NCBI GenBank assembly: GCA_964584025.1 | Contig: CAZOYE010000010.1 | Span: forward strand, 14,515 to 78,514 | Direction: 5' to 3' | Source: an uncultured Ignavibacteria bacterium | GTDB lineage: Bacteria; Zixibacteria; MSB-5A5; CAIYYT01 | DNA length: 64,000 nt | In this document: one piece after another, positions 26,787 through 63,540 of the stretch | Layout of the letters: each line of letters begins with the position of its first letter | How positions within the stretch are numbered: position 1 is the stretch's first letter | Made by a program: the position numbers and the translations under genes | The notes under the pieces: generated by a model | What the model was told of the DNA's origin: nothing | The model's input: the letters and a program-made list of their open reading frames with translations, nothing else | Database searches by the model: none

Positions 26787-26942
26787 AATGTTCTTCTCCT
26801 CACCAGTGAAGATGCGATATAATTTTTCAATTCTTTTCAGATCCTTGGTACTTCCCGAAGAGTGCAGTTTAGCAGGCGGGACGTCGCCTGGACAACTGCA
26901 GATTCACTCGGCGTAATATACTTGGTGCCCGATGAATTTGTT

Positions 26943-27242
26943 TCAGTTCTTGTTCTCATTGTCGTTTCGAAGCTCCACTAACGTTGCCCCCCAGGAAGAA
27001 CTCGATTGGCTGTCGAGTCTAAAGCTCTGGACATGCTCGTTTCGTTCGAGCAAGGCGTGGACGGTGCGTCTTAGATTGCCGATTCCCTTGCCGTGAATAA
27101 TCCGGAGCTGGCGAATCTTCCTGGCGAGACAAGCCTCGATATACGCCGGAATCAACTCGCGGACATCACGCGGCGCGAATTCGTGGAGATCAAGTACACC
27201 ATTGATCGGGTACTCATGAATCGGTTCAGAATCATCGCTCAT
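26943..27242 (-). CDS. Smr domain protein
   Basis: LDLHEF...ARKIRQLRIIHGKGIGNLRRTVHALL Smr/MutS2-C-like motif. Confidence 0.75.
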   Translation of the reverse strand: MSDDSEPIHEYPINGVLDLHEFAPRDVRELIPAYIEACLARKIRQLRIIHGKGIGNLRRTVHALLERNEHVQSFRLDSQSSSSWGATLVELRNDNENKN

Positions 27243-27415
27243 TTGACTGACAGATAAAGTGCTACTTTAGGCTTGCTCCACAAGCGATTTTTCCTATATT
27301 AGCGGAGCCATTTGGTTTGGCATCTTGGGCGCGACCCGGGAAACAGGTACCTCGCACTTTTCACGAGCTATTGTCTACTACTTCAACCGCTTGGTAAACA
27401 CCAGGCTAACAACAA

Positions 27416-29443
27416 GTGACTGTCATCGTGATCCGTCTGGCTTTTGCCATCGGCCTATTCTGCTCCCTGCACACCCACATCTGGGCTTACTCGGTATCGA
27501 CTTCCGGAACCGACATTCTGCCAAGCGTTACCATTCCCGCGAACCTGCAGGTCTCGGATCGCTCCGCTCTGCCTGTGGCATTCGAACTTCCGCGGCACTT
27601 CCCCACCGACACCTCAGGTCTCAAGTTTGATGTGGAGGCGTATCAACCGGACAATCCCCGCCACCTTCTTGACCAAGCTTTGGGCGACGGAGATCGAGGC
27701 TCAGGCGGGTTGGGTCCCTGCAAAAGCTTCAGTGGCGCAACATACACGGGCTGGGACCCTCCGGATCCGCAGATTGCGGTCGGCCCGAACCACATCGTTG
27801 AAGTCGTCAATAGTGCGATCTCTGTCTTCGACAAGAATACCGGGAATTTGCTGCTCAGCGCCTCCGCGCAATTCTGGTTTGCCGGCGTGCAGCCGGCGCC
27901 GCCGAGCACGTTTATTTACGACCCCAAGGTGATTTATGATCGCGTGTCGGGACGATTCGTGTTGTTGTTCTTGTGCACCGACGGTGTCGAGAAGGCGGCA
28001 TTCTTGCTTTCGGCCTCACAAACATCAAGTCCACTCGGAAACTGGTGGAGCTACTGTCTTGATGCGACGCTTAATGGAGCAAGTCCGAGCGGGAGTTGGC
28101 CCGACTATCCAGGGTTGGCTTGCGATTATGATGAAGCTGTCTATCTCAGCGCCAATATGTGGGATTTTGCCGGCACTTACATGTACCCCAAGGTCAGGAT
28201 TATTCCCAAGAACCGGTTGTATAGCGGTATGTCTCTGACCTACTCAGATATCTGGGATATCCGTTACCACAACGCAATGGCTGCCTTTGCCGTCAAGCCG
28301 GCGACAATGACGAGCGACGCCAACGGCATGTTCCTCTGGAGCAATCAATGGGCCGGTGGAGACTATGTAACGTATTGGAAGATCACCAACCCGCTTTCAA
28401 CGCCGGTGCTGACAATCCGGCCGAAGGTCAATGTCGCGGCGTACTCGATGCCGCCCAACGCAGCGCAAATGGGCGGGAGTAGCATTGGGATGATCGGCCC
28501 GATGACTCAAGATGTGATCTTTCGCAACGGCAAACTCTATAGCGCCTTCGATCAGGCATTCAATTGGGGTGGCGGAGCCGTCGCCGCCATTCGCCTGCTC
28601 GGCATTGATACTACGATATCGTCGGCGGTCGTCGATTACGTCATCGGCGGTCCGGGGAAACACTACTATCTGCCGAACATCTATGTCGATGCCGACAACC
28701 GCATTTTCGCGGCCTTCAATCGGTCCGGCGCCGATGAGTACGTTGGAGTCCACTATATCGAGAATTTGTCGGGCGATGTTCGTTCCCGGCCGCTCAAGAA
28801 CGGTGAGGGTCCGCGAGGCGGCAGCGCTCCGGTGCGCTGGGGCGATCACTGCGGGATTTCCGGGGATCCAAACGACGCGTCCAAGGTCTGGATGTGCGGC
28901 GAATATAACACGAGCTCTCCATTCCACTGGGGGACGTGGATCGGCAACCTGCCTTCGGGTGTTCCCTCTCCCGCCGTCGCCACACCCGCCCCTGGCAGCG
29001 GTCAGAAACCGCCGGTGAAGCTTGCCTGGGATCCGGAACTTCCCGCCGAGAGTTATTCACTGCAAATCGACGACGACTCCAGTTTTGCCTCTCCCCAGAT
29101 TAGTGTGGTTGTCGACACCAACGTTTATGTCGCCGCTAACCTGTCGGTTGGGACCGTCTATTTCTGGCGGGTCAGGGGCATGACGGCGTGTCCGGACAAC
29201 CCCTGGTCAAACACCTTTTCATTCAAGGCTTGCAGTCGACAGCCCGGCGATGTTGACGGTAACGGAATCGTCACAATCAGCGACGCTGTCTACCTGATTA
29301 CATTCATCTTTTCCAACGGGCCGATGCCGACGCCGCAAGAGGCGGGCGACTCGGACTGCAACGCGATCGTCAACGTGTCTGACGCCGTTCGCGTCATCGG
29401 CTATATCTTCTCCAGCGGCGTGGCGCCTTGCGGTCCATGTTGA
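27416..29443 (+). CDS. Secreted protein of unknown function with Fn3-like module and Cys-capped double dockerin-like C-terminal domain (CTD)
   Basis: Hydrophobic N-terminus. C-terminus [28 protein letters not shown]...[32 protein letters not shown]. Confidence 0.5.
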
Positions 29444-29481
29444 AGGGGGATTTCCAGCGAGCCTGTCATCGACGATCTTCA

Positions 29482-29510
29482 TTGACAAAATGCGTCGATT
29501 ATCGTATCTT
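29482..29510 (+). promoter_or_regulatory. Candidate sigma70-type promoter (TTGACA-17-TATCTT) upstream of the reprolysin-like gene
   Basis: Direct sequence match. The -10 element lies 43 nt upstream of ATG 29553. Confidence 0.35.
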
Positions 29511-29552
29511 ATTGTCCAACAACGCCAATCAACCCATAATATTGGGAGTCTC

Positions 29553-31355
29553 ATGCGCATTGCATTTATCGCATTGACCGCAGTACTGATCGCGGCTGCT
29601 GGCTCCGGCCTGCTCGCGGCTCGACCCGACACAATTCGCGTCGAAGTCGACTACATGGTGGGCAACGGCCACTCGCACAAGCTGCAGCCTGCCGAAGTGG
29701 ATATGATCGTGGAGGCCTTTGCCTGCCAGGGGATCGTGATGATTATTGAAGTCTCCGACTCCGTTCCGCACTTCGACAATATGACCGGAGCTTCGTTCTT
29801 CACAAATACAGCGCCAAACGGCTTCGCCTGGTACAAGAACAATTACATGGATCATCTTGGCGACCCGGGTTGGCATTACTGCATCATGGTTCACCAGTAC
29901 AACGGTTCGGGCAGTTCGGGACTGGGAGAAATATTCGGGGACGATTTTATTGTCTCACTCGGCAGTTGGTCGGGCCAGATTGGAACGCCCTTCGATCGCG
30001 CGGGCACTTTCATGCACGAACTCGGGCACAATCTGGGACTGCGCCATGCCGGAAACCAGGATGAAGGCGCGATTGGGCAGTACAAGCCCAACTATGCCAG
30101 CGTGATGGCTTATCGTTACCAGGTCGACGCGGTGCGGCGCGGCATGCTCTGCACCGAGTTGGCGGATCTTCTGCTGATCGACCGCAAGAATCTCGATTAC
30201 TCCGACGGCACCCGGCCGTCGCTTGATGAAAATGCGCTGATCGAGGCCGACGGCATCGGATACGGTCCGGTCGATTGGAACTGCAACGGCATTATCGATG
30301 CCGGCCCCGTCTCACAAGACCTAAGGAATCCCGGCTGGTGTTCGTCGTCTTCGACGCTGCAAGTACTGAACGACTACGATGACTGGGACAATCTCACAGA
30401 TGTTACGCTATTCAAGTCGGGGCATATTCACCAGAGTGACGAAATAGTAGAGTGCATCACCTACGAAGAAGTGCTGGCGATGCGAGCGGCCAAAGCGGAT
30501 GTCTGTGATGGGCCGTTTGTCGAAGTCGAAGACTGTACCTTCCAGTACATTTGTAACGACGTCGACCAGGACGGCTGGGGCGACCCGGACGACACGCTGA
30601 ACAATTGCGAACTCGACAACTGCGGTACCGCATTCAATCCGGATCAATCAGACGTCGACGGCGACAGTCTTGGCGATGTCTGTGACCCGGACGCCGACGG
30701 CGACGGCCTGCTGAATGCTGCCGACAACTGCTGGCTGGTTGTCAACCTCGGCCAGGAGGATGCCGATGCCGACAGCGTTGGCGACGCCTGCGACAATTGC
30801 CCCGCGGTTTACAACCCGGAGCAACTAGATGAAGACGACGACGGCAACGGCGATCTTTGCGACGGCCGCGTGCACATTTACACGCCGACTACGCTTCCGA
30901 CGGCTTACAAGAACCAGCCGTATTTCTACCAGTTCGTCGGGGTCGGCGGTATCGGTACGCTCACGTGGACATTCCTCGGCGGCGACACACCGTTCGGATG
31001 CGATTTCAATGGCGGCACAGTCGGTACCTTGACCGGTACACCGTTCTTCTCGGCGCAGTTCTTCTTCACGGTGGAGTTGTCCGACTCGAATGTCCCGGCC
31101 TCGAAGGACACGATCAGCGTTTCAATTACCGTTGTCGACCCGCCCTATCTCTGCGGCGACGCCGACGACAGCGAGATCATAACAATTTCGGATGCCGTGT
31201 ACCTGATCAACTACATCTTCGGCGGAGGTCCAGCGCCATCGCCGCTCGAGGCCGGTGATGCGGATTGCAGCGGGATTGTGACAATCTCTGATGCCGTATA
31301 CCTCATTGCTTTCATCTTCGGTGGCGGTCCGGCGCCTTGCGCAGCCTGTCCATAG
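29553..31355 (+). CDS. Secreted reprolysin (M12B)-like metzincin with thrombospondin type-3 (TSP3) Ca-binding repeats and Cys-capped double dockerin-like CTD
   Basis: Signal peptide [36 protein letters not shown] matches HExxHxxGxxH. Repeated DxDxDGxGDxCDNC / NPxQxDxD units. CTD ends ...[14 protein letters not shown]. Confidence 0.7.
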
Positions 31356-31387
31356 GCTGACAGAAATTCAATCTCCGAACTTTGCGA

Positions 31388-31417
31388 AGAGGAACGCCGG
31401 GCGTTCCTCTTTTTTAT
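31388..31417 (+). terminator. Rho-independent terminator after the reprolysin-like gene
   Basis: GAGGAACGCC gg GCGTTCCTC followed by TTTTTTAT. Confidence 0.6.
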
Positions 31418-31528
31418 CCCTCTGCCAAACCTGCGAGCGAACGCGTCAAAAAACAATACCTAAATCGATGTATATACTCTATATTAACTGACGATCGCAG
31501 TTGCAGACACGGACCCGGGGAGAATTCG

Positions 31529-34500
31529 ATGAACTCACGTTTCTATCTCAGCCTTTTGTTGGCCGGACTTGCGGCTCTCTATGCGTACACGCCGTCGGCG
31601 AGCGCCGATGATTGCGGCACGGAGCTGACTGCCGCCGACATACAGGCCATATCATCTCTGCTTGACGAGCAATCGCTGGCCCGCGAAACGCGCTCCAACG
31701 ACTTCTATGACCTGCCGATCGCCATGCACATCGTGCGGCAAAGCAATGGTACCGGCGGAATCAGCGCCGCAGAAGTCGAGGCGTCCATCGACAGCGCGAT
31801 CATTCTGTTTGCGCAGGTCAACGTCTCGATCTACGAAATTCAGCCGGTGAACTTCATCGACGAAGATTTCTTCTATTTTGATATGTCGAGCAGCACGCAG
31901 ATGGACAGTCTCAAGCGCTACGACAAGGTCGCCAATGCGGTGAATATCTACTGGGTGCCGAGCTCTTCCGGATTTGGCTATTGCGGTATTTCGTCGTTTC
32001 CTTCGTCCGGTGTTCAGGGGATCATCATGAACAATAATTGCGGCGGCCTGCTCTCGAAAAACTCGACATTGGTGCACGAAATCGGCCATTACTTCAACTT
32101 AATGCATACTCACGAGCCGGCCTTTGGCATCGAGTGTCCTAACGGCAGCAACTGCACAACAGCGGGAGACCTGGTTTGCGATACGCCGGCCGATCCCAAC
32201 GTCAGCGGACACGTGGGCTTGCCGCCGGATTGCCTCTACGACAACTTCGCTTCTCCGCCGGGCGGCTGCGACGCAACACCCTATAGCCCGCCGGTCGACA
32301 ATATCATGTCCTACTCACGCCAATCATGCCGCGACATCTTGACTCCCGGACAGGTCGACCGTTTTCGTTTCGCCGTCGAGAAGCTGCGGCCGGAGCTGGC
32401 AACCTTGATTAACGGCGTCCTGATCACTCCCCTCGCGGTCAATCCGCTGATTGTGCCACTGGCAACAAAGCAGGACTCGGCGATTGTGCTTCAGAATTTC
32501 GGAGGCAGTGCCGTGACCTTCAACAGCGCGACCTCGGTCTTCGGGAATGTGGTCGTGACCGGAGGAACCCCGGTGACCCTGATGCCGTCGGAAGTCGGCA
32601 ATGTAACCTTCGAGTACGATGCCCTGGCGCTCACGTCGAGCTGCGATCTCGGAGTCGTCACCGATACGATTGTCATCACGATTTCGGCTCCGACCGTGTG
32701 GGAAGTGCGTATTCCTGTTACCGTGAATATTGCTTATGCGATTCCCGCGCAGGCGCAAAACTCATTTCAATCGACCTGTTTGACCTTCACCGTGCCGAAT
32801 ACGCCCGCCCTCGGCGACCGCACTTCGGCTGCATTCTTGGATCCCATCAGCAACGTGCTTTACGACGGTTCATTGTTGCTGGGCCTTATCGACGGGTCAG
32901 ATACCACCGTCTACATGGACATGTTCTCGCAAAGCGATTATCTCGCGGCCGATGGGTTCGTGGCCGGCACCGACGAATACGGCCGCACGACCCAGACCTT
33001 GCGCTTCGCGACCAACGATGCGCGCTTGAGCGGCGAAGTCATATATCATCTTGGCGGCGATATCGGGACCCCGGATAGCTGCCAGGTCATTGAAATCGAA
33101 TATCGCGTGCGCAATGATTGCGATACAAACTTGCAGGTCGTTGCCGGGATCGCCGCGGATTTTGATATCGACGGCTCAGGGTCGAACAACGCCCTTGTCG
33201 ATGGCGTCAACCACATTGTCTATGTCGATCAAGGCGCTCATGCGGCGGGTTTTGCGAATTTGATGCCTTGCCCGGAACAGGGTTCCTTGCGGACGATCTC
33301 CAACGCAGTCTCTATTTACCCCACCAACGGCCTCATTGACGGCGCGACGTACCTGGAGATGGTTTCTCCGAACAGCGGCGATATATTTGCGCAAGACGTC
33401 TCCGTGCTGCTCTCATTCGGCAAATTCCATCTTCACACCGGTACGGAGCGGACATTGCGCGCGGCATTGATGTCTTCCCAGTTCACGGGAGTCGGTCTGC
33501 AAGCTGCCGCCAATGGATTGCGTACTCTGAGCCCACCCGGGCCGTGCTTCCTCGAAGTTCCTCAAATCTACGGTACGATTCAAGAGGCAATCACGGCAGC
33601 GGTTGATGCTGACACGATCGTTCTCGCACCCGGGACCTACACCGGGTTCGGCAACAAAGACCTTGATTTCCAGGGCAAAAAGATCGTCGTGCGCGGCGCC
33701 GGGCCAACATCAACGTTTATCGACTGCGCCGGTTCGGCGGGAAGTCCGAGTCGTGGATTGCGCTTTGACGACGCCGCTGAGAACAGCAGTGTTCTGATTG
33801 AAGGGTTGGCGATCAAGAACGGATATGCTCCTGCTGACGGCCCGAGTTTTCGTCCGAACGGGGGCGCGGTTATTGTCATGAACGGCGCTTCGCCGACTTT
33901 CCGCAACTGCCGCTTCGAGTTGAACTTTGGCAAGCGCAATGGCGGTGCGATTTCCGTCGAGGTCGGGTCAAGTGTGGCACTTGAAAACTGTCTCTTCGTT
34001 GACAACTCCGTCTTCGACCCCCTGGACAACGAGTATTGGGGAGGCGCAGTCTATCTTGGGTCATCAACTTCCGCGGTGATCACCGCTTGCGAATTCATCA
34101 ACAACTCGGCATTTGCCGGCGGCGCACTCGCGTTAGACAATAGCGCTGTAACGATTGTTTCCGGTTGTCGGTTCATCGCCAACAGCGCCCAGTTTGCCGG
34201 CGTCGTGATTTGCGACGCTGCGGCAGCCGACTTCAACGGCTGCGCCTTCGCCGATAACTTCGCGGAGATTGCAGCGGGGGTTGGCTACTCGTTTAACGAG
34301 ACATTGTCGTCAAACTTCACGAATTGTACATTCGTCGGCAACTTCCTGTCGACCCCAAATCCAAATTCAGGAAGCGTCTATTATGCCCAGGATGCGGCTG
34401 TCGATTTCAGCCGCAGCATTTTCTATGACAACAGCGGCGATGAAGTGCTGGTGTGCAGTGGCACTGGCGCTTTCACAATCGACTGCTCCAACATTTTTGG

Positions 34501-35269
34501 CAATGCATCCGGTGATTGGACCGGCTGCGTCGCCAGTCAGTCGAGCAGCAACGGCAATTTCTCGGCTGATCCGATCTTTTGTGACCTGCCAGGGGATGAT
34601 TTCCGGGTCAGAAGTTCTTCGCCCTGCGCGCCGGCAAACAACTCATGCGCCGTTCTGGTCGGCGCTGGATCGCCCGCCTGCGGCAATACGCCAGCAGGAA
34701 GCGACGTAGCTGTCGCTGTGACCGACAGCGTGACGGTGACATTCAACACCGTGACCGACGACGGTGAAACTTCGGTGACGATCTCCGAAAGTGGACCGAA
34801 TCCGCCGGCCGGATTTGAAATTGTGCCATCGACGCCGGAGGCCTACTACGAGATTTCGACGACAGCACCGTACTCTGGCGTGATCGAGATCTGCATCTAC
34901 TACGATCCGGCACAGGTTACCCCCGGTAACGAGGCTGACTTAAAGCTCTTCCACTACGATGGATCAAACTGGTCCGATATCACCAGTACCATTGATCAAG
35001 GCGCCAATGTGATATGCGGCGAAACGACGTCGCTGTCGCCGTTTATCGTCGCGCGGCCGTCGTACATTTGCGGCGACGCCGACGGCACGGCGATTGTAAC
35101 GATCTCTGATGCAGTGTACCTGATCGGCTACATTTTTGGCGGCGGCCCGGCTCCTTCCCCACTGGCGAGCGGCGACGTCGATTGCAGCGGCATCGTGACG
35201 ATTTCGGATGTAGTCTACTTGATCAACTACATCTTCGGCGGCGGCCCGGCACCGTGCGCGGGGTGTTGA
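31529..35269 (+). CDS. Secreted M43 (pappalysin/ulilysin)-like metzincin fused to right-handed beta-helix repeats and Cys-capped double dockerin-like CTD
   Basis: Signal peptide MNSRFYLSLLLAGLAALYA. VHEIGHYFNLMHTHE plus CDTPADP. Repeated NxxAxxGGA(I/L)xxxxS beta-helix-type units. CTD ...[13 protein letters not shown]. Start moved to ATG 31529 because the terminator at 31388 lies inside the longer ORF. Confidence 0.7.
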   Translation: MNSRFYLSLLLAGLAALYAYTPSASADDCGTELTAADIQAISSLLDEQSLARETRSNDFYDLPIAMHIVRQSNGTGGISAAEVEASIDSAIILFAQVNVSIYEIQPVNFIDEDFFYFDMSSSTQMDSLKRYDKVANAVNIYWVPSSSGFGYCGISSFPSSGVQGIIMNNNCGGLLSKNSTLVHEIGHYFNLMHTHEPAFGIECPNGSNCTTAGDLVCDTPADPNVSGHVGLPPDCLYDNFASPPGGCDATPYSPPVDNIMSYSRQSCRDILTPGQVDRFRFAVEKLRPELATLINGVLITPLAVNPLIVPLATKQDSAIVLQNFGGSAVTFNSATSVFGNVVVTGGTPVTLMPSEVGNVTFEYDALALTSSCDLGVVTDTIVITISAPTVWEVRIPVTVNIAYAIPAQAQNSFQSTCLTFTVPNTPALGDRTSAAFLDPISNVLYDGSLLLGLIDGSDTTVYMDMFSQSDYLAADGFVAGTDEYGRTTQTLRFATNDARLSGEVIYHLGGDIGTPDSCQVIEIEYRVRNDCDTNLQVVAGIAADFDIDGSGSNNALVDGVNHIVYVDQGAHAAGFANLMPCPEQGSLRTISNAVSIYPTNGLIDGATYLEMVSPNSGDIFAQDVSVLLSFGKFHLHTGTERTLRAALMSSQFTGVGLQAAANGLRTLSPPGPCFLEVPQIYGTIQEAITAAVDADTIVLAPGTYTGFGNKDLDFQGKKIVVRGAGPTSTFIDCAGSAGSPSRGLRFDDAAENSSVLIEGLAIKNGYAPADGPSFRPNGGAVIVMNGASPTFRNCRFELNFGKRNGGAISVEVGSSVALENCLFVDNSVFDPLDNEYWGGAVYLGSSTSAVITACEFINNSAFAGGALALDNSAVTIVSGCRFIANSAQFAGVVICDAAAADFNGCAFADNFAEIAAGVGYSFNETLSSNFTNCTFVGNFLSTPNPNSGSVYYAQDAAVDFSRSIFYDNSGDEVLVCSGTGAFTIDCSNIFGNASGDWTGCVASQSSSNGNFSADPIFCDLPGDDFRVRSSSPCAPANNSCAVLVGAGSPACGNTPAGSDVAVAVTDSVTVTFNTVTDDGETSVTISESGPNPPAGFEIVPSTPEAYYEISTTAPYSGVIEICIYYDPAQVTPGNEADLKLFHYDGSNWSDITSTIDQGANVICGETTSLSPFIVARPSYICGDADGTAIVTISDAVYLIGYIFGGGPAPSPLASGDVDCSGIVTISDVVYLINYIFGGGPAPCAGC

Positions 35270-35296
35270 GGATCGCTTACAAGGATCTGCCATCGC

Positions 35297-37396
35297 TTAG
35301 TTGTTTGACTCAGCGAACTCCACAAGAGTCTGGCGCAAAATCGCGTGGAGTTCGCTTCTCTGACTACTGGTCAGCCCATCGTCGTGCGGCGGCCAAATCA
35401 TCGCGATCTCCCCAAGAGCCTCGATTCGTCGTCCCGAGTTGTGTTCGAACTGCAGTGCCTGCAATGCGGCATCGAGTTCACCATATCGCGCGAGGGCCAT
35501 GGCACAGCCAGCCACTTCTTTATCGATAATCGGGTCTAAAGTCCCGATCAATCTTGAAGTGGATATTGCGAGGTACCTGTTGATCAACTGAATTGCGCGG
35601 TTCGCACAGCCACTGGCGTGTTGCGCGTCTGCTATTCTGATAATCATATCCGGCCTTATTCTCATCAAGACCGAATCGCGGGCATCAATTAGAGTAGACG
35701 TCGCTTTATCAATGTAGAACTTCACTCGCCCTTTCTTCAGCCAGATATTGCTCGGATTTCCAAGCGATAGCCAATAGTCCAGTTGCTGGGGGATCTCCAA
35801 TTCCTTGCATTTCTGATCAGCTGCTACGAGAACACGTTCAGCCTCGCTGGGATCAGGCCCGTCATACGGCTCTTGAAACCACTCCATGACAAAGCCGACG
35901 TAATCTTCTGGTGCTTTGACCAACTCAAGAATTGTAAGAAAGTCATCAGTGCTTGCGCCGATATCCTGCAATTCGGATGCAACCTTCGCCAGCATCCAGG
36001 AGCGCAACTGAGCATCGCGAATCCTTGCGATTACACGAAGCGCATGCCCCTTGTTGCTGGTGCGGATGCTGGTGTGTATGTATTGACCCAGTTCGTAGCT
36101 GAAGTCCTGTGTCGAAATCGAATCCTGCAACAGGTCTCTCAGTGGACCATAGGAGGGCACCAGTTCATACAAGTTGGTTGCGACAGGGTACCAAGCATCG
36201 CGAGCTCTTGCACTTGGGACTTTCGGTAGTTCCTTCAGATGCGACTCAATAAGTGCCCGCACGTCATCGATTCGCCCACAGATCAGGAATATTCTCGCCA
36301 GTTGCTCTGTAATCTCGAAATGAGTCCATGGATTTGTTACCGATTCAAACGACTCACGTCCTCTCGCGAGCAAGGTCCGGGTGAGAGCAGAGTCTCCGCT
36401 CGCGTGCGCAGCTGACACGACTGGAAGTGCCAGTCGACAGAAGTCATCGCGTTTTGCCCCCAAAGTTATCTCGGAAGCAACAGCGAGCGCTTCATGTGCC
36501 CCCTCCGAATCGCCCGCCAGGACGAACCGGTCGTACGCCGATAGCAACGCGCGAAGCGACCAAGTCGGGAATTGGTCAGCAGCGCGCCGAGCTTTCTCTA
36601 CGGCCTGACTCAGGTCAACATCGAGATACGCCTCCGCAAGTCTCAAGTCAGCCGATGCCTCCTCACTAGGTAAGGTTGCAAGACTTTCTAATTGCTCCAG
36701 GAGAGCCCGGCGTTCGTGAATTCCAAGCAATGGTGAGACCGCCTCGTAAATCAAGTCGAAACGACCCAAGTACCATTTGGGAAATCGTTGCTTGGCAACG
36801 ACAGTCGCGAGCGCGCTATCGGTTAACTCCCGCTGCAGTTGCTTGTCTCCAAGTCTTGCTGCAAGACTCGCTCCCCGTGAGAAGAGCAAGTACTTTCGGT
36901 CATTAAGCGATGGAGTACACAGTGCCTTCAAGCCACGATCAAGATCGCCATAGTCTAAACTAGTTTGAGTGAGGGCGAAAATCAGACTGTGCCGCGTCGA
37001 GATGTGCGTTCCCTCAACAAGTTCGTGCCTTTGTCCCGTTTTAGGGTCGATAGTCTCCACGCGAGGGAATGATTTTGCCAAATATAAGGCCGCACTAAAC
37101 AAGTCCCCTTCTGCCCCTGCACGCTCTCTAAACATCGGCGCCACCGAATCCATTATGGTCGTGGCACTCATCTCGCGCCCGTTGACCACAAAGCGACTAT
37201 CCGGAGCGAGACTGTGGAGTGCCGACAATGCGCGCTCCAGATATTCCCGAGCTTGAGCAAAGCTGGTGCCCTCTGCGACTACCGCACTGTCGAGTACCGC
37301 CTGGATTTTCGCGCTCGAATCAGCGATCAAGTCGCTGTTATAGAAAGCAAGGACGATGACAATCACCGACCTGAATATTGAATTGGACCCTTTCAT
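35297..37396 (-). CDS. Hypothetical secreted alpha-helical repeat protein (no recognisable catalytic motif)
   Basis: Start at the internal Met MKGSNSIFRSVIVIVLAFYNS (signal/TM). Leu/Ala-rich helical composition. Lower local GC. Confidence 0.4.
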   Translation of the reverse strand: MKGSNSIFRSVIVIVLAFYNSDLIADSSAKIQAVLDSAVVAEGTSFAQAREYLERALSALHSLAPDSRFVVNGREMSATTIMDSVAPMFRERAGAEGDLFSAALYLAKSFPRVETIDPKTGQRHELVEGTHISTRHSLIFALTQTSLDYGDLDRGLKALCTPSLNDRKYLLFSRGASLAARLGDKQLQRELTDSALATVVAKQRFPKWYLGRFDLIYEAVSPLLGIHERRALLEQLESLATLPSEEASADLRLAEAYLDVDLSQAVEKARRAADQFPTWSLRALLSAYDRFVLAGDSEGAHEALAVASEITLGAKRDDFCRLALPVVSAAHASGDSALTRTLLARGRESFESVTNPWTHFEITEQLARIFLICGRIDDVRALIESHLKELPKVPSARARDAWYPVATNLYELVPSYGPLRDLLQDSISTQDFSYELGQYIHTSIRTSNKGHALRVIARIRDAQLRSWMLAKVASELQDIGASTDDFLTILELVKAPEDYVGFVMEWFQEPYDGPDPSEAERVLVAADQKCKELEIPQQLDYWLSLGNPSNIWLKKGRVKFYIDKATSTLIDARDSVLMRIRPDMIIRIADAQHASGCANRAIQLINRYLAISTSRLIGTLDPIIDKEVAGCAMALARYGELDAALQALQFEHNSGRRIEALGEIAMIWPPHDDGLTSSQRSELHAILRQTLVEFAESNN

Positions 37397-37421
37397 TCCT
37401 CTCCTCCCAAAGTAGTGCAGA

Positions 37422-38057
37422 TCACTTGTCTCTATGAGGATGACGAATCTGTGTCCGTAATGCAAAATCTTTGCGACCACTTGCACCTGCGTTTCGCTTC
37501 GCTATCATGGGAGCGGTTCTCGAGTCGAGCTCCCGGCTTCCGGTCAACCAAATTCGGCCAAAATCACTCTCCCCTCCTTGCCAAATGCTAACAATTCCGT
37601 CCCAAAACACGATTCTCAGGCTGCCATAAACCCCCGAGTCAAGTATGCCGATCTTGACTTCGGCGCTGCCCGTTTCATATTTCCACGCCTCCGGTGCGTT
37701 AATATCAGCGTCTTCAGTGCCGCCGAACTGGCCGGTATTGTCCAGCGCCCACTGCTGCGAGACTGAATCGTCATCTACAACCGCACCGTGCCAGTCGATG
37801 ATTCCGTTCTGTACCGCGCTCAGTACGTCTTCACTCGATTCTAACTCCTGCGCGGCCCGAGAGGCGCTTGCCGAATCTTCAAAGGTCAGGTTGTAAACAC
37901 CTTTCAGAGTCGGCTTCTCAACCCATATCCCGTCACGACCCTCAACCAAGACATAGTCCGAGTCATTGTCCTCAAAGGTTCGATTGATATAAACCGCGTG
38001 AAACGGTTCGAGAGCGTGCAATATCTCTTCAGATAGGATTGTTGATGTGTCACACAA
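37422..38057 (-). pseudogene. Truncated S8 subtilisin gene fragment (propeptide plus the first catalytic Asp region only)
   Basis: QQWALDNTGQFGGTEDADINAPEAWKYETGSAEVKIGILDSGV parallels QYALNNTGQSGGTVDADIDAPEAWDITTGG...VAIVDGG of the full subtilisin at 59707-63540, then diverges. No ATG start (the track's start is TTG), no signal peptide, and no His/Ser regions. Confidence 0.5.
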
Positions 38058-38148
38058 GTGAAGAGATTTTCCTGCCGGCAGATTGACTATCTCGCCGTGG
38101 AAAATTACACTGACGCTCTTGTGAATTTCAGCCCCAACGAGTGCTGAA

Positions 38149-38172
38149 GAGAGAGAGAGAGAGAGAGAGAGA
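38149..38172. repeat. (GA)12 dinucleotide microsatellite
   Basis: gagagagagagagagagagagaga read directly. It is intergenic, about 90 bp upstream of the subtilisin fragment. Confidence 0.9.
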
Positions 38173-38306
38173 CGACAAGAACGAGGATACGAGTAACCAC
38201 GTTCGTTGTGGCGTCTTGAGATGCCCGAGTACAGTTGACGCTCTGCGCCATATTGCCTCCTGTGCTTCTACTGTACCTTGTCTTTTTAGCCCAATTTCAA
38301 ACGTAC

Positions 38307-39215
38307 TTAGAAAGTAATCTGGTGTTTTTCGCTGCCATCCGGCCGCATCAACCAGAGATGACCATTGTCAGGATCGATCTCCGTAAAGACGATCCATTCT
38401 CCATCGGGCGACCATGCCGGATATCCACCTCCTTTCGATGTAAGTCTCCTGTATTCCTGCGTCCTACAGTCAAAATTCCAGATATTGATCAAACTCGTGC
38501 CCTCAATCCGGCTGATCAGTATCTCTTTACCATTGGGGCTTGCGGCAGCGTAGCGTTTGAGTTGATCCAAGAAAGGGAGCGAAATTGACTCCTGCGCCGA
38601 GATCGAGTAGAGTGAGAGTTCTCCCTGCCAAGTAACCGCGAAGCTGAGTACTGCGATAGAGTCGCAACTTCCGAGCCAATCCCCATACGAAGCGTACTGC
38701 AGAATCAAATTCTGTGCGCCAGATGCTGTGTTGAATTGGTGCATTCCGGCAGTCTGACCAACTCGGATAAAGTAAACGATCTTATCACCGCACGGCGACC
38801 AGCGCGGAAAATGGGCACTCTCGTCGGTTTCAATGTGCTCAACACTATCCTTGGCCAGATTGGTGATGTAGATTTGCCCACCTGTTTTCATCGCGATTCG
38901 AGTGCCATCAGGCGACCAGTCAAAGTCCGAGGCCCAGAAGTTTTCCCACAACAGGGAATCAGAACCTGACTCAACATCATGCAGGAACACCCCCCACACC
39001 CATTGCGTGTCTTTCTGATCAGAGTCATTGTTGAAACTTTTGAAGTAGATGATCTTCTTTCCATCCGGCGACCAGGCGGGAGAGATGTCGATCTCCGTTT
39101 GAGGAATCGGCGGCCAGAATCCATCCTTGTCGTTGTTTCCTTTGTCGCTGCAACCGACTAAGAGTGCCGCCGATAGGCACAGCATAGAAATGAATAGAAA
39201 TCGAATCACAATCAC
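38307..39215 (-). CDS. TolB-like PD40 beta-propeller lipoprotein
   Basis: Lipobox LLVGC. Repeated WSPDG motifs (AWSPDGKKIIYF, FDWSPDGTRIAM, PRWSPCGDKIVYF, AWSPDGEWIVF). Confidence 0.7.
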   Translation of the reverse strand: MIVIRFLFISMLCLSAALLVGCSDKGNNDKDGFWPPIPQTEIDISPAWSPDGKKIIYFKSFNNDSDQKDTQWVWGVFLHDVESGSDSLLWENFWASDFDWSPDGTRIAMKTGGQIYITNLAKDSVEHIETDESAHFPRWSPCGDKIVYFIRVGQTAGMHQFNTASGAQNLILQYASYGDWLGSCDSIAVLSFAVTWQGELSLYSISAQESISLPFLDQLKRYAAASPNGKEILISRIEGTSLINIWNFDCRTQEYRRLTSKGGGYPAWSPDGEWIVFTEIDPDNGHLWLMRPDGSEKHQITF

Positions 39216-39378
39216 CCCCGGGAGCCCACGCCCCGAATTTCAATGTTGTGAATTAGTTCACATCTAATTCAACGCGCGAACTGCGATTTTGTCAAGTGCA
39301 AACTCGCATTCGTTGACAGCACTTTTTGGCGGCAGCGATTGTCGGACGCTACTGCCCAGTTCTGCAAGCGAAGACATT

Positions 39379-39450
39379 ATCTCCGAATCTTGCGTCGTGA
39401 CTGACCGTTACATCTTCGGCGGCGGTCCGGTACCGTGCGCGGGGTGTTGA
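39379..39450 (+). pseudogene. Orphan 3' remnant of a dockerin-like CTD gene (last ~24 codons plus stop)
   Basis: Translates IISESCVVTDRYIFGGGPVPCAGC*. The nucleotides are near-identical to 35220-35272 (acatcttcggcggcggcccggcaccgtgcgcggggtgttga). There is no upstream ORF. Confidence 0.55.
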
Positions 39451-39560
39451 GGGTTTCGGTGACATGTCGTTACTGACAAATACACAACAGCCGCCCGAAT
39501 CGCTTCGGACGGCTGTTTGTTTCCCGGTCCCTGGATCTGGTCAGATCAGATGCGCTAATC

Positions 39561-40940
39561 CTACCCGAATACATCCTTGTTAGTATCGATTTCGTACTTC
39601 TTGATCTTCTCAAATAGAGTGGTATAGTCGATTTGCAGAATGTCAGCGGTCTTGCGCTTGTTGCCGCGCGTCTGGTTGAGTACGCGAATGATCATCGCGC
39701 GCTCAGCCTGCATTTGCGCCAACTGGCCGACTTCCTTGAGGCCCGCACCTTCACGAAGGCGGACATCTTCAGATGTCGACAGACGAATCGCCAGATGCTC
39801 CGGCTTGATCTTCTTGCCTTCCGCCAGAATAATCGCGCGCTCCATCGTATTTTCCAGCTCGCGCACATTGCCCGGCCAGTGATAGCGCTCGAGGATCTGC
39901 AGCGCCTCACGCGAGAGCGATTTCTCACCCTTCTTCATCTGGCGCCAATACTTGTTGATGAAGTAGTTCGCCAACGGAATGACATCCTCGCGGCGCTCGC
40001 GCAGCGGCGGAATATGAATCGGGAATACCGAGAGGCGATAGAACAGGTCTTCGCGGAATTTCTTCTTACCGATGGCTTCTTGAAGATTCATGTTGGTCGC
40101 CGTGATGATGCGGACATCCACCTTGATCGGCTTGGTGCCGCCGAGGCGTTCGAAAGTCTGCTCCTGAAGCACACGCAGGAGCTTGGCCTGCAGCGAGAAT
40201 TCCAGATCGCCGATTTCATCGAGAAAGATCGTGCCGCCGGAAGCGATCTCGAACTTGCCCATCTTGCGGGCGTGCGACGAGGTAAATGCGCCCTTCTCCG
40301 AACCAAACAACTCGTTTTCAAGCAGCTCGCCGGGGATCGCGGCGCAATTGATCGTGATATAGGGTTTGGTCTTGCGCGCCGAAAGCGAATGGATCGCCCG
40401 CGCGAACAGCTCTTTACCCGTGCCCGATTCGCCGGTGAGGAGGATCGTCGTGTCCGAGGAGGCCACCTTCTGGACCAGCCGCATGACATCGATCATCTTC
40501 TCGCTGGTGCCGATGATATCGGTGAAGCCGAGCGATTCGGCCAGTTCCTCGCGCAGGAGGTTGTTTTCCGCGACCAGGCGTTGATTTTCCAGCGCGCGCT
40601 CGACGATCATGCGCAGATGGCTGGTGTCGAACGGCTTTTGCAGGAAATCAAACGCGCCGCGCTTCATGGCCTCGACAGCGGTCTCGATCGTGCCGTAGGC
40701 GGTCATCACGATTACCGCCGAGTCGGGATCAACGTTGCGCACCTGTGACAGTACGTCCATTCCGGAGATATCCGGCATACGCAAATCGGTCAGGATAACG
40801 TCGAAGTGCTTTTCACGTGAGCGCGCGACGCCGACATCGCCGGTTTCTGCGGTTTCGACATCGTAACCGTCCGCGGACAGCGACGCCTTGAGCATTTCGC
40901 GCATGCTGTCTTTGTCATCGATGACAAGAATGTTAGACAC
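39561..40940 (-). CDS. Sigma-54-dependent response regulator (NtrC/Fis family)
   Basis: REC domain (DLRMPD). AAA+ core with GESGTGKELFA and GAFTSS. C-terminal HTH. Confidence 0.9.
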   Translation of the reverse strand: MSNILVIDDKDSMREMLKASLSADGYDVETAETGDVGVARSREKHFDVILTDLRMPDISGMDVLSQVRNVDPDSAVIVMTAYGTIETAVEAMKRGAFDFLQKPFDTSHLRMIVERALENQRLVAENNLLREELAESLGFTDIIGTSEKMIDVMRLVQKVASSDTTILLTGESGTGKELFARAIHSLSARKTKPYITINCAAIPGELLENELFGSEKGAFTSSHARKMGKFEIASGGTIFLDEIGDLEFSLQAKLLRVLQEQTFERLGGTKPIKVDVRIITATNMNLQEAIGKKKFREDLFYRLSVFPIHIPPLRERREDVIPLANYFINKYWRQMKKGEKSLSREALQILERYHWPGNVRELENTMERAIILAEGKKIKPEHLAIRLSTSEDVRLREGAGLKEVGQLAQMQAERAMIIRVLNQTRGNKRKTADILQIDYTTLFEKIKKYEIDTNKDVFG

Positions 40941-47300: not shown

Positions 47301-49267
47301 TCTTCGATGCCAATACTGGTGCGAACCTGATCGATTACATCGTCAGCGGTAACATCATGGGCACGGCGATTGCCAGTGGCACCGATGGCAACAACTACAT
47401 CGTCACCGCGATCCGCAACGCCAACGACGCCCAATCGGGCCGTCTGCTTTGCTTCGCGAACGGTGGCCCGCGTCCGCGTCTGAATATCCCTGAACTCCTG
47501 GTCCAGTTCACCGGCACCAATACGTCGGAAGCTGCTCCGGTTCAGAGAACCGACAATGACGCCGTTGTCAACACCGGTTGCGCGACTCTTAACGTTACGG
47601 CCACGCTTGAAGCCGGCGCTCCGCCGACCGCTCGCGTCATCTCCGACATTCATCCGGCTCTGGCGAACAAGGCGGAAGCTTTGGTTGCCGACTTGACGGA
47701 TTACACGGTCGAATCGATGATGGGCCGCGTTGCTCAGTCGATCAACACCAAGGGCGCTTCGATGTTCGAAGTGACCTCGGATGGCGAGACGATTGAAAAG
47801 GCGATCACGGCTGTGAAGCCGGCGATGGCCAATTCCGAGAGACTGGCTCCCCCGACCTGGGTGAGTTGGATTCTGCCGCTTTCGGGTGGCGCTTCGGTCA
47901 ACTTCGCAGTTGCCGGTGGTGGAAGTCAGGACTTTACGTTTGAGTTCGACCGCAGTGGAATGAACTTCCTTGCCCCGAACTACTACTATGTGTACATCGA
48001 TTCGGATGATCCGGATTACTTCGTCGAACAGTCCCCGCAGCCGTCCCCGCAGGCGATCATCGAGTACCAGATTGCGTACGAGTATTGTGCAAAAGACACA
48101 AGCCGTATCGACTTTGGTGCCGCTGGTAGCGCTTGGGCGACGAACTACGGCGCTCTGGCCGACGGCAACGTCGCGTTCGAATTCTCGCTGGATTCGAGCT
48201 CTGACGGCGCCTACGCCTACGAAGGCACCATGTTCTTCATGACGTCGATGGACGACGCCGCCTGGAACGTGTTTGGTAGCTTTGATGCTCAGTATCTCTA
48301 CCCGTTCTATGTCGGCCCGTTTGTCAACGGTGATTGTGGTGGCTGCGATATCGGCGTGAATCTCCCTGTCGAATACACAACTAATGGCGGCGCGACCTAC
48401 GCCCCGACCGTTGGTGATATTTGCACCTTCGCGATGATCGACTCGTTGCAGGGTATCCTGAATGCTCACCAGGCTGGTCCGTCGATCGGCTTGTTGATCG
48501 ATACCCGCGAAATCGGCACCTACGGCGCTGACTTCGCTGACTTCGCGTTGTTCGTCGTCGATGTTAACGAACGTAACGGCAACCCGATCACGGGTATGTA
48601 TTACGGCTCCTTCATGGATTGGGACATTGGCACAGACGGTGGCGGCGGCGACGTTGCCAAGGGCTTTGTCTACCAGAACGACGGCGTAGAAGTGCGCGGC
48701 TTTATCGGCCTGCCGCTTGCCGGTTCGTACTGGCCGGACGGCACCAAGACCGACCCGATGTACAATGCTCATATCCTTGAGAACTCGCTCGTTGTCTATC
48801 CGACCGCTCCGTGCTCCGACTGCTTACCGGATTCTCTGTATGCATTCGTGGACGGCGTGGCCGAAGGCGCTCTGGTTATCATGCCAGACGGCACCGGCCC
48901 GGATAAGTCGACGATTGCTACCTTCGGCAAGGCAAACATTGCCGGCGGCGGCACGCATAGCTACGGCTTCGCCATCTTCGGTCATGCCAACTCGGCTGAC
49001 CCGAACGGCGACACCGAAGCCATGAGCAAGTTCATCAACAAGTACGCCGGTTTCGCTCGCGGTGACGTGAACGACGACGACTTGATTGATCTCCGCGACC
49101 TGGTCAAGCTGAGCAACTACGTTGGCTCAGGCGGCCCTGGTCCGGCTCCGTTCAAGCACCTTGGCGACGTGAACAACGACGGCGTTGTTGACGCTGCTGA
49201 CTGCGCTTACCTGGCGGCTTACTACTTCACCGGTGGTGCCCCGCCGCAGAGCGCGTTCGTGTTCTAA
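44375..49267 (+). CDS. Giant secreted protein (~1630 aa): Pro/Gln-rich linker, three Cys-rich tandem ~165-aa modules, PQQ-like beta-propeller, divergent double dockerin-like C-terminus
   Basis: RBS AAGGAGG 7 nt before ATG 44375. Signal peptide MFKRLLLVVLTLALILGLSSMAFA. Three repeats each containing ECTLKT...(W/Y)ADxGG(L)PG...VDVS.ANL...HVGY...CC. PQQ-type motifs AVDLQTGALVWD, ALNATTGADLYS, KADLATGANIWA. C-terminus GDVNDDDLIDLRDLVKLSNYVGSGGPGP...GDVNNDGVVDAADCAYLAAYYFTGGAPP. Confidence 0.75.
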   Translation: MFKRLLLVVLTLALILGLSSMAFATKDPSSFKVGTYTIGTPGAGRALHQPQPIHPPTTPYSGGIAQPLPNPQQPAARSSAATCDWQAQYGTISFYFNGSAGFGQAVRWSQTNSAEVCSLKTISLLIYGAASTFGASAGVTSYVWADDGTGLPGAVIYSVNVPHASILFYPSYTDVDVSSANLVFSGVTEYHTGFIPNSIADTYACLMDNGDGGPNASTSLYIQGTGWFGNGGVFVSGDINWAQEIYTCCYEAGDPGICDTQLWHCGVVYRWPGFWAAERFTAAGECTLKTVRLSISSFGTAAYVGGIDALIYADNGGLPGTILGSVHVPDASITFAPGMTSVDVSGLGLVFNNEDYHVGYRPVNPAEDYQPIGDDGEIPATCPEGGVLRGSASLDLGATWDYMANIDIGYDDNWVFEVDYCCAAVVNLCDNLNYAGSPFYYWTEPDVYGDQFRNMRFTNAEYCTLKTVNLNFYAPGSVGAPGAQIYIWNSDGQFPTSVITTYNVNPVVDYFPTATSVDVSAANILLAGDYHVGYSTILNAPTDVLAILSDDGTTGSLRSSEFYSGQWWLMANSWGADVNFLIDVDRCCTPPGYCPIFCSPTDQWPTFSHDYARTGQSQLTLGDLCGIVKVWQYDGPAAVNGLNFTQPLIYNDLVYAAYNDRVVAVDLQTGALVWDTFTLGYGLIITNSLRCQMTIDPTGLYFGTGALRGFAKADLATGANIWARGVGVANPLPGTPGQTRFAGSVIVGNEVYFGCENSQIYALNATTGADLYSAQLYTDAGNTVKGSIYGPATTDGSDLFFGLTANLLGATNGLGAVISVSYGGAFTQNWKHISAFQAVLHENFAAGTTYRCDNLFVHASFAFGNQGDYSGYRQNLDPATGTPIWTSTFLMGQNIFCPPAAGNELVFFPNINNGFGSPNAGTRGVRAVNFANSTVWLNAASDAANNNVFNSPAVTCDPYVMYGSYDLIGFDYHWGIFDANTGANLIDYIVSGNIMGTAIASGTDGNNYIVTAIRNANDAQSGRLLCFANGGPRPRLNIPELLVQFTGTNTSEAAPVQRTDNDAVVNTGCATLNVTATLEAGAPPTARVISDIHPALANKAEALVADLTDYTVESMMGRVAQSINTKGASMFEVTSDGETIEKAITAVKPAMANSERLAPPTWVSWILPLSGGASVNFAVAGGGSQDFTFEFDRSGMNFLAPNYYYVYIDSDDPDYFVEQSPQPSPQAIIEYQIAYEYCAKDTSRIDFGAAGSAWATNYGALADGNVAFEFSLDSSSDGAYAYEGTMFFMTSMDDAAWNVFGSFDAQYLYPFYVGPFVNGDCGGCDIGVNLPVEYTTNGGATYAPTVGDICTFAMIDSLQGILNAHQAGPSIGLLIDTREIGTYGADFADFALFVVDVNERNGNPITGMYYGSFMDWDIGTDGGGGDVAKGFVYQNDGVEVRGFIGLPLAGSYWPDGTKTDPMYNAHILENSLVVYPTAPCSDCLPDSLYAFVDGVAEGALVIMPDGTGPDKSTIATFGKANIAGGGTHSYGFAIFGHANSADPNGDTEAMSKFINKYAGFARGDVNDDDLIDLRDLVKLSNYVGSGGPGPAPFKHLGDVNNDGVVDAADCAYLAAYYFTGGAPPQSAFVF

Positions 49268-62700: not shown

Positions 62701-63540
62701 GCGCCGCATGGTCAGCGCATACTGGTACGCGCGGACGGCGATCGACTCGGTGCCGGAGGAACCGGCAATAGCCATAACCTTGGCGCCCCAGTTCACGCCA
62801 CTGACGCCGAGGGCGTTATTGCCGCGCGCAGCCGCGATACCGGCCACGTGCGTTCCGTGCGTGTTGCTCGGGATTGAGCCGTCCATCGCGTAGGCATCCC
62901 AGCCGTCATAATCGTCGATGTAACCATTGAGATCATCGTCGATGCCGTTACCGGCGATTTCATTGCGATTCTTGAAGTAGACAATATCGGCGTGGTTGAT
63001 ATCAAAGCCGCCGTCGACGATGGCAACGACGATGGTGTCGCCCGTCGATGTCACGCCGCCCGTCGTGATATCCCAGGCTTCCGGCGCGTCAATGTCGGCG
63101 TCAACTGTGCCGCCTGACTGGCCGGTGTTATTCAGCGCGTACTGCTGGCCGAACTGCGTATCGTTCGGGATCGTCGCGCGCATGGCAATGTGGTGGTTGA
63201 ACTGAACCGCCAGAACGCCGGGATGATATTTCACGTTTTCGAGAAGTTGCTCGCGATCGGCCTTCTGCATTCCCGCATCGTCAAACTCGTAAAGCCAGAC
63301 GTTCAGATCCGGCGCGAGGAGTTCGACCGGGTGAAGATTCACCCCGAAGAAAGCGTCGCCAACAGCTTTGGCGTCCGCATCGCGGGCGACTTGAATCATT
63401 AGCTGATTGGGTTCGTAGGTCGGCTCCTTGATTTGAATGGGTTGGGCCTGGATCGCTGTGGCGACAGCCAATAGCAGAATGGCCATTGCCGTCCACACGC
63501 GCAAATGAGTGCGGGAGGACATTAACGCTCGATCGTTCAT
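59707..63540 (-). CDS. Secreted subtilisin-like serine peptidase (S8) with large C-terminal extension and Cys-capped double dockerin-like CTD
   Basis: Signal peptide. Catalytic triad regions VAIVDGG, HGTHVAGIAAARG, GTSMATPHVCG. C-terminus [29 protein letters not shown]...[33 protein letters not shown]. Confidence 0.85.
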   Translation of the reverse strand: MNDRALMSSRTHLRVWTAMAILLLAVATAIQAQPIQIKEPTYEPNQLMIQVARDADAKAVGDAFFGVNLHPVELLAPDLNVWLYEFDDAGMQKADREQLLENVKYHPGVLAVQFNHHIAMRATIPNDTQFGQQYALNNTGQSGGTVDADIDAPEAWDITTGGVTSTGDTIVVAIVDGGFDINHADIVYFKNRNEIAGNGIDDDLNGYIDDYDGWDAYAMDGSIPSNTHGTHVAGIAAARGNNALGVSGVNWGAKVMAIAGSSGTESIAVRAYQYALTMRRLYNQTNGLKGAFVVATNASFGVDFGQPANFPIWCAMYDSLGSVGVLNAGATANLNIDIDAQGDIPTACPSPYMIAVTNTTRTDTKNSGAAYGATTIDLGAPGTDVLSTVPGSSYSTLTGTSMATPHVCGAIALLWSEACPTMINAYKQNPGALALIMRDYLLDGTDPKPSLAGITVTGGRLNVYNSLLLVQSYPCGVAISHEGLPDTKETVNPYPVVANIVGDAALIADSLLLHYTISATNYLDTLVATGNPNEYVGYIPAQGPGTDISYYMEAHAINGKGDTTEVYSFSVIDYAVLLSPDISLGSGAVDDTVWHDLTVTNDGLFDDAYNLSLFGADWATTLWDETQSSQITATPNLTPNATFDFKARVIIPASFYGQVDTATVTATSQADALVSQSSSLRTTSAGQPVELPFVDNFVTTTVDPSLWVQWTNVTIDGVGIAEPSEPNSVRLNGNPTGADTLMSQAINMNVASGVNIGYYYEKKGGGDSPEAGDDLIVEYYTDAGAWAELTRHLGSSADMTAYSYFSTGVPSNGYHSAFRIRFRTVATAGALDDWFVDNINIDFGPAIAVNPGSFVENLHEDDSTYDELVIDNSGLGGLSYSVVVQPLLTKSEARFAELAAQDRVQTAHGESELPAIELPKDQRDKAPRGPDVIYDAGGPDTFGYIWIDSDDPGGPTYNWIDISATGTDIIGALNDDNFSGPYPIGFTFPYYDGNYTQFYMASNGYIGFGPTDNYGSRFNAAIPAAATPNNAIYWCWTDLNPDDADNPGGKVLYQNVGGALVISWINYPEYESGVNPGDVITAQMILSPDGGIKLQYQSMGAGFDLTSNTIGTENLGGTDGLQVSLNTSYIHPNLAIEFAKPKQWLYVEPLSGTVAPGEADTLSLKFVSTDLDTGTYQANVKITSNDPLPQNNPLILPATLNVLPPGPFYMCGDCNEDEIVNISDAVYLISYIFSGGPAPNPLEAGDSNCDALVNISDAVYLIGYIFSGGSVPCAACP

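Follow-up and report, generated by a model that had tools for sequence, protein, structure and literature searches.

A short dockerin gene-end relic next to an NtrC-type gene in an uncultured Zixibacteria genome, probably homogenised with the tail of a nearby M43 metallopeptidase gene

In the window, that is, the whole 64,000-nt stretch of DNA that was analysed, an array of dockerin genes made up of a 675-aa gene (g675), an M12-like gene and an M43 metallopeptidase gene was followed by three ORFs in reversed orientation, a short orphan dockerin tail, a predicted terminator and a convergent gene for a response regulator of the NtrC type (Table 1). The M43 gene appeared as an ORF of 1295 aa, being called as 1246 aa elsewhere. 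The element labelled CTD in the preliminary description of this DNA was found to be a type I dockerin-like double repeat (PF00404), a family whose members are recognised by two tandem F-hand calcium-binding repeats of ~22 residues each scoring above the gathering score. With a cut-off of 22.9 bits, the S8 gene of the window (59707-63540) scored 28.9 bits, and the M43 and M12 genes 19.2 bits each. Overall, at least six dockerin tails were present in the 64 kb.

Table 1. Features of the locus in the window and of the corresponding slot in close relatives (relatives are given with the handle of their contig)
Feature	Position	Strand	Evidence or remarks
M43 metallopeptidase, beta-helix and dockerin gene	31382-35269	+	Pfam PF05572, weak PF00404; orthologues P0003-P0007
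Functional tail of the M43-dockerin gene	35228-35271	+	Sequence partner of the orphan
Variable 4.1-kb stretch between the tail copies	35272-39409 (about)		Foreign composition; other content in relatives
ORFan of 729 aa, convergent with the M43 gene	35297-37486	-	27 nt between the stop codons; no family match
Subtilase (S8) 5' remnant inside a 211-aa ORF (37422-38057)	37632-37826	-	BLASTP to the S8 gene of the window
PD40/TolB-like beta-propeller lipoprotein gene	38307-39215	-	Pfam PD40, 3.4e-16; NCBIfam TolB-propeller, partial match
Spacer upstream of the orphan	39216-39407	+	Not significantly dockerin-like (HMM, nucleotide alignment, PSSM)
Orphan dockerin tail	39408-39452	+	13 codons (YIFGGGPVPCAGC), TGA stop at 39448-39450 and two more bases; gene body absent
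GC-rich hairpin, predicted terminator between the orphan and the convergent NtrC-type gene	39486-39517		Terminator scan, RNA fold, alignments
Sigma-54-dependent response regulator gene, NtrC type	39561-40940	-	Pfam; anchor gene defining the locus across genomes
Fibre-like gene of 518/493 aa filling the slot	L001 12233-13789; L093 13935-15416	- (L001)	Weak NCBIfam and PHROG matches
PilZ-domain gene between the orphan or M43 flank and the terminator	L001 11507-11944; L094 5782-6330	- (L001)	Absent at window 39485/39486 and in L093

The sequence of positions 39379-39450 had been quoted correctly in the preliminary description, and translated to IISESCVVTDRYIFGGGPVPCAGC followed by a stop codon. 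The near-identity to the 3' end of the M43 gene proposed there was confirmed as well, with 41 of 43 bases being the same between 39410-39452 and 35229-35271. By local alignment to 35227-35271, 42 of 44 positions were identical, starting with TACATC and extending to the stop codon plus GG. When up to three mismatches were allowed, the 43-mer of the orphan matched the window at only two places (its own position and the M43 tail), and no match was obtained in 100 shuffles. For comparison, the M12 and M43 genes were identical at 32 of 40 positions over the same tail stretch (~80%), and the intact paralogous dockerin regions of the window showed 73-77% DNA identity over the whole region. As the intact paralogues are only 73-80% identical, the 95% match between the orphan and the M43 tail is specific to this pair.

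The orphan had been reported to lack an upstream ORF, in agreement with its position within the 345 nt that separate the minus-strand PD40 and NtrC-type genes, and an independent gene call on the Logan contig L092 placed no gene between those two. A mechanical ORF of 53 codons ends in the orphan from a TTG start at 39289, with nothing found in its support; the reading frame opens only 61 codons upstream, and neither ATG nor GTG occurs in it. Having homology to part of a functional gene and being devoid of start, body and called gene, the orphan was classified as a gene relic, and 39289-39450 should not be annotated as a gene. The Pfam search of the fragment ORF returned no match, PF00404 included, and a clade-specific dockerin HMM built with the fragment excluded recognised only its last 18 aa (10.6 bits). 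The intact genes of this locus end in two F-hand repeats, as type I dockerins do, but with no more than the final 13 of ~65 residues left, the orphan is unable to form the domain.

The preliminary description had further proposed that the part upstream is degraded and, compared to VVYLINYIF, carries an internal deletion; this claim found no statistical support by HMM, nucleotide alignment or PSSM. The 47 aa upstream scored -2.0 bits in the dockerin HMM built without the fragment, where shuffled sequences had a mean of -1.2 bits and a 99th percentile of 3.1 bits. A score of 21.9 bits obtained for the same residues was rejected as circular, because the fragment had been recruited into the training alignment by tblastn, and the score fell to the -2.0 bits mentioned once the model was rebuilt without it. 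The local alignment of the upstream nucleotides gave p ~0.04, with a score that was unremarkable against real segments of the window, and the end-anchored PSSM gave 6.5 bits (p ~0.02), compared to 85 bits for a true dockerin. Moreover, a DNA profile of 18 dockerin upstream regions produced no nhmmer match in the window, L001 or L093. The best nucleotide match upstream was TTTTTGGCGGC, which is collinear and in frame, 30 codons upstream (33 in M43), with a score that is not significant. Since the match is collinear and in frame, the spacer may possibly include a very old dockerin remnant; the relic that can be demonstrated is 39408-39452.

The two tail copies enclose 4.1 kb of DNA of unusual composition. 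Its G+C content was 0.519, compared to a mean of 0.566 for the window, which corresponds to the lowest 0.4% of 4.1-kb windows, and its tetranucleotide distance was 0.0228 (mean 0.0131, sd 0.0023), a value unmatched by any other window. Furthermore, GC3 ranged from 0.55 to 0.58 in this stretch, compared to 0.67-0.75 in the flanking genes. The 729-aa ORFan had no match in Pfam, NCBIfam or PHROG, and no homologue outside its own cluster was found among 5.8 billion proteins; its cluster mate, from a Logan assembly, lies on contig L092. The translation of the PD40 gene, whose upstream region adjoins the orphan, showed a lipobox (LVGC). On composition, the 4.1-kb stretch was probably acquired horizontally, and most simply it would be recently acquired, already scarred foreign DNA that replaced the fibre-like gene found in relatives (see below). 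No donor locus for it was found. Its right end lies ~10 nt or less from the 5' edge of the relic, a closeness that would be surprising if the event had been illegitimate and random, and that hints at an involvement of the tail itself in the exchange.

A second gene fragment occurs in this 4-kb stretch, on the strand opposite to the dockerin relic. Residues 78-142 of the 211-aa ORF matched residues 109-178 of the S8 gene of the window (BLASTP, 43% identity, E 3e-12), a match over the last part of the pro-region and the motif of the catalytic Asp (KIGILDSG), right after which the similarity was lost; no further S8 sequence was found by tblastn in 35000-39600. The idea of the S8 remnant and the orphan being halves of one gene was discarded, given their opposite strands and the lack of relationship between the S8 piece and the S8-dockerin gene found next to NtrC in the relative L008.

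The NtrC-type gene was used as the anchor to compare the locus across genomes. Its product was 100% identical in amino acids in L001, and its orthologues in Zixibacteria metagenome-assembled genomes (MAGs) were 65-88% identical. By these orthologues the window belongs to Candidatus Zixiibacteriota, several of the records carrying the label uncultured Ignavibacteria. In seven more distant Zixibacteria (L005, L019, L021, L008, L010, L007 and L006), the NtrC orthologue faces a convergent gene with a dockerin end, at a distance of 93-163 nt between the ends of both genes, and the heads of these NtrC-proximal genes were variable (cohesin-like, Laminin_G_3 (LamG), S8 subtilase and beta-helix). The stop codon of the window orphan lies 110 nt from the end of the NtrC gene, and the L093 orphan ~112 nt from it. 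As these distances fall within the range of the relatives, the orphan sits where the 3' end of a dockerin gene lay ancestrally. The intact gene at the equivalent position that the preliminary description advised to look for was thus present in the seven distant loci, the closest relatives having only the relic, and the deletion of an ancestral enzyme gene, one of the readings offered there, gains support from these seven convergent genes as to the existence of such a gene. Among L003-L024, a search for further orphans at a threshold of at least 28/39 identities returned only a real gene tail, in L021. Two distant M43 orthologues (P0008 and P0009, ~55% identity) were considered as a guide to the ancestral NtrC-proximal gene and set aside because they lie in unrelated contexts.

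Three close relatives showed different contents between the M43 gene and the NtrC gene. L093 (GCA_964520555.1, 75% amino acid identity in M43) has the M43 gene, a 493-aa fibre-like gene, the orphan (YIFAGGPAPCAGCP and a stop), the terminator and the convergent NtrC gene. L001 (GCA_964576925.1, 86%) has the M43 gene, the 518-aa homologue of the fibre-like gene, the orphan (HISAGGPAPCAGC and a stop), a PilZ gene, the terminator and NtrC. L094 (GCA_964633215.1, 86%) has the M43 gene, ~136 nt of flank, the PilZ gene, the terminator and NtrC, with neither fibre-like gene nor orphan. The window sequence, taken as 100%, carries the arrangement given above. The terminator hairpin was kept in L001, L093 and L094, according to the alignments. 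The locus can thus be seen as a small hot spot of recombination, each of the four related genomes showing its own state (a fibre-like gene, the fibre-like gene together with a PilZ gene, a deletion or an acquired 4.1-kb stretch). The fibre-like gene matched the N-terminal domain of the Bdellovibrio mosaic adhesive trimer in NCBIfam (23.6 bits, cut-off 60) and, weakly, a PHROG tail protein. In L094, the PilZ insert shows short similar repeats (CCAATACAC and CAACAACAC) on its flanks, beside the terminator.

The alignment between L093 and the window starts exactly at the orphan (L093 position 15480, window position 39409) and continues through the terminator and NtrC, and L093 and L001 are collinear over the M43 gene, the fibre-like gene and the orphan. 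Being orthologous in three genomes, the orphan is older than their split (M43 ~73% DNA identity). L094 retains the M43 3' flank (z = 3.7 against the M43 flank of L093), and its deletion relative to L001 ends ~120 nt past the orphan position; L094 lost the orphan through an ordinary deletion, and as this genome lacks it, the orphan is dispensable. In L001, the orphan copy reads HISAGG, its frame is closed six codons upstream and a 1-nt indel breaks the frame between the fibre-like gene and the orphan. In L093 (13935-15526), the orphan is in frame with the 493-aa gene, one TAG and 20 codons lying between them (…EQKR, stop, TDAGEELSQVKSIVPHRQSENYIFAGGPAPCAGCP, stop); this TAG could be a recent nonsense mutation, a read-through codon or a coincidence.

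Two further rearrangements were observed in the dockerin arrays of the relatives. L093 carries an extra 1205-aa FG-GAP/TSP_3 dockerin gene (6202-9819) between M12 and M43, where the window has only 31355-31382; this indel is bracketed by dockerin repeats with tails identical at 38 of 39 positions, as expected from unequal crossing-over. In L001, the homologue (19732-20325, minus strand) of the 675-aa dockerin gene (window 27416-29443) is only 197 aa long, owing to a 1.43-kb internal deletion (window 27896-29325) that joined the first 215 residues to the second dockerin half, which provides an example of a body deletion leaving a partial dockerin tail.

The tail copies were compared over 39-45 sites in three genomes (the window, L093 and L001), a small sample for a pattern of conversion. 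Over a core of 39 nt, the orphan and the M43 tail of the same genome shared 37 positions in the window, 38 in L093 and 34 in L001, compared to 35, 32 and 33 between orphans (35 and 32 for the window orphan against the other two). The copies are thus closer within a genome than the orthologues are between genomes, as defines concerted evolution, over these 39 sites and three genomes. In particular, the L093 orphan carries the L093-specific states of the functional tails of that genome (GCC (Ala), GGG and GCG), and the window orphan has the window-type states at the same three positions. The L001 orphan appears to be a mosaic, the 22 nt at its 3' side being identical to the resident M43 tail and the 17 nt at its 5' side having five differences, including the L093-type Ala codon. 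Moreover, the orphan core is 82-90% identical (32-35 of 39) among the three genomes, amid flanking non-coding DNA that is essentially unalignable; a neutral 45-nt relic of such age should diverge as the spacers do, which the core does not, and this leads to the conversion reading. The footprint of recombination or gene conversion among dockerin paralogues suggested in the preliminary description is therefore supported, as the orphans are nearer to the resident M43 tail than to each other. We infer from these substitutions that the orphan and the M43 tail bear what is probably the signature of concerted evolution by short-tract gene conversion. On the other hand, with 40-45 bp the homology is close to the minimum for RecA-dependent exchange, which speaks against conversion.

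The M43 tail is likely the donor or the recipient of the orphan sequence. The gene ends in TGT-TGA-G in the window and L094, as in the orphans, and in TGT-CCN-stop in L001, L093 and L095, and conversion may run in both directions. The 39-nt core of the M43 tail was identical at 39 of 39 positions between the window and L001, although the whole genes are 81% identical, and the last 45 nt considered (35219-35263) were 98% identical, in the top 1.3% of 45-nt windows. This rank indicates a nucleotide conservation beyond what the protein alone requires, and being so unusual it may reflect a constraint at the sequence level on the M43 tail.

Our preferred explanation is that the orphan is probably the 3' relic of an NtrC-proximal dockerin gene that was repeatedly homogenised with the M43 tail and is now the right border of the acquired 4.1-kb stretch. 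The orphan marks the ancestral 3' end of the dockerin array, which converges on the NtrC-type gene and shares its terminator, and the gene body that once preceded it would have been lost. Its ancestral owner could be the M43 gene, displaced by the insertion of the fibre-like gene, or a further member of the array that was lost. As suggested by the four genomes, the slot would have held the fibre-like gene in the ancestor of the clade and the acquired 4.1-kb stretch in the window genome, and, as suggested by the common substitutions, short-tract homologous recombination between direct repeats 4.2 kb apart would overwrite the relic repeatedly. The relic itself would have no function of its own, being deleted in one relative and having its 5' half decayed and its frame broken in another.

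Gene relics homogenised by intragenomic conversion resemble this case in that a short non-coding copy of a gene end, placed within a few kb of the functional copy and in the same orientation, is closer to that resident copy than to the orthologous relics, and one lineage may show a mosaic tract. They differ in that the homology block is here very short (~45 nt) and in that the donor belongs to a family of dockerin tails, so that several donors are possible (the tails of L093 are 36-38/39 identical to one another). No publication treating Zixibacteria and dockerins together was found in the literature searched, and so the instance is new, the phenomenon (a gene relic under gene conversion) being known. 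The fragment itself matters little; it offers a clean and well-documented case, from an uncultured phylum, of the relic of a gene end that conversion keeps young, and it marks where a tandem array of genes for dockerin-tagged peptidases ended ancestrally.

An unlikely alternative, though the best placed of those considered, is a cassette exchange free of any recombinase, in which a circle or fragment carrying a tail integrates in the Campbell manner at a dockerin 3' end and duplicates the tail, loop-out removes cassettes, and the orphan is the second copy left by the latest event. It would account for near-identical copies with DNA of foreign composition between them, and for the 5' edge of the relic coinciding with the right junction in both types of cassette. 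The extra dockerin gene of L093, bracketed by near-identical tails, the differing heads of the NtrC-proximal genes over a tail that remains, and the fusion to half a dockerin in the g675 homologue of L001 would fit too. However, the orphan is orthologous in L093 and L001, where another cassette fills the slot, and is thus older than the 4.1-kb stretch, so the event in the window did not create it. Moreover, the left junction probably lies outside the tail, ~14 nt past it, the deletion of L094 does not run from tail to tail, and the 4.1-kb stretch has neither a donor locus found nor, for its 729-aa protein, a homologue. In its general form, this proposal would make dockerin tails, the orphan included, a portable homology marking out a slot for exchange where the array ends, worked by RecA-type recombination with no dedicated recombinase, which we likewise regard as improbable. 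The orphan would then persist because every exchange regenerates it, as genes enter, leave and swap enzyme heads. If true, the slot would be a homology-based analogue of an att site driving the modular turnover of secreted dockerin-tagged enzymes in Zixibacteria, and tail-mediated exchange would help to explain the fast turnover of enzyme heads on dockerin modules.

Less probable still is that both copies are att repeats, an integrase-less element of the cis-mobilisable kind having integrated site-specifically at the M43 3' end, where it brought a replacement end and displaced the original one, now the orphan. Integrase-less cis-mobilisable elements (CIMEs) are known at the 3' end of fda in Streptococcus thermophilus. 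As with the attL and attR sites of such 3'-end-targeting elements, direct repeats of 43-45 nt that include the gene 3' end and stop codon flank the 4.1-kb segment of foreign composition, the target gene is intact, and relatives carry different content (the 518-aa fibre-like gene) between equivalent repeats or, in L094, neither insert nor second copy. Against this, no integrase, transposase or phage-like family was found in the ORFs of the 4.1-kb stretch (Pfam, NCBIfam and PHROG being among the searches), and none is listed within ~10 kb in L001. A search of viral contigs with the 33-nt tail gave no matches, and the 10 loci found in metagenome contigs with the 21-nt core were all chance matches in unrelated sequence. 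Unlike in those elements, a clean empty site was not found either, as L094 keeps the M43 3' flank and its deletion extends beyond the orphan, and the left junction in the window perhaps falls beyond the repeat. Furthermore, the repeat is ancient relative to the insert, and the repeats are 87-97% identical despite the 518-aa insert being old (common to L093 and L001), for which conversion would be needed in any case.

That selection maintains the orphan for a function of its own (small ORF, RNA element or antisense pairing with the 3' end of the M43 mRNA) is very improbable. The identity of its core in three genomes amid unalignable non-coding DNA and its frame in L093, joined to the upstream 493-aa gene but for one TAG and 20 codons, could be taken in its favour. 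Nevertheless, L094 has lost the orphan and L001 has a decayed copy, the genes around the orphan and their orientation vary between genomes, and its substitutions follow the resident M43 tail instead of a consensus of its own. In addition, no Rfam match was found at the orphan, and the fold z-score of the region (-1.7) came mostly from the terminator, the folding being otherwise unremarkable. Finally, an assembly artefact, be it a chimeric join or a repeat collapsed at the common 43-mer, which the preliminary description had named as what could undo its claim, is hardly credible in spite of the window coming from a metagenome-assembled genome and of the copies being near-identical, since the independent Logan contig L092 (SRR14787579; 13,134 nt, equal to window 26752-39885 with no mismatches and no gaps), spanning the NtrC 3' end, the orphan, the three intervening ORFs, M43, M12 and g675, reproduces both copies at 100% identity with their two differences kept, the longest exact run common to both copies (21 nt) is below the usual final k-mers, and the orphan lies at the orthologous position in two other MAGs (L001 and L093) from other assemblies.

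Regarding the dockerins of the window, tails were located at 29402-29443, 31311-31355, 35228-35269, 59707-59751 (minus strand), 63822-63995 (minus strand) and 49061-49252. Most of the dockerin-like domains end in C-x-x-C, sometimes with an additional P, at the extreme C-terminus (CAGC, CAACP and CGPC, each before the stop codon), and the copy at 49061-49252 has no such ending. This C-x-x-C(P), straight after the second repeat, distinguishes the family from type I dockerins, and to our knowledge such an ending has not been described in the classical ones; it could serve for metal binding, disulfide formation or sorting.
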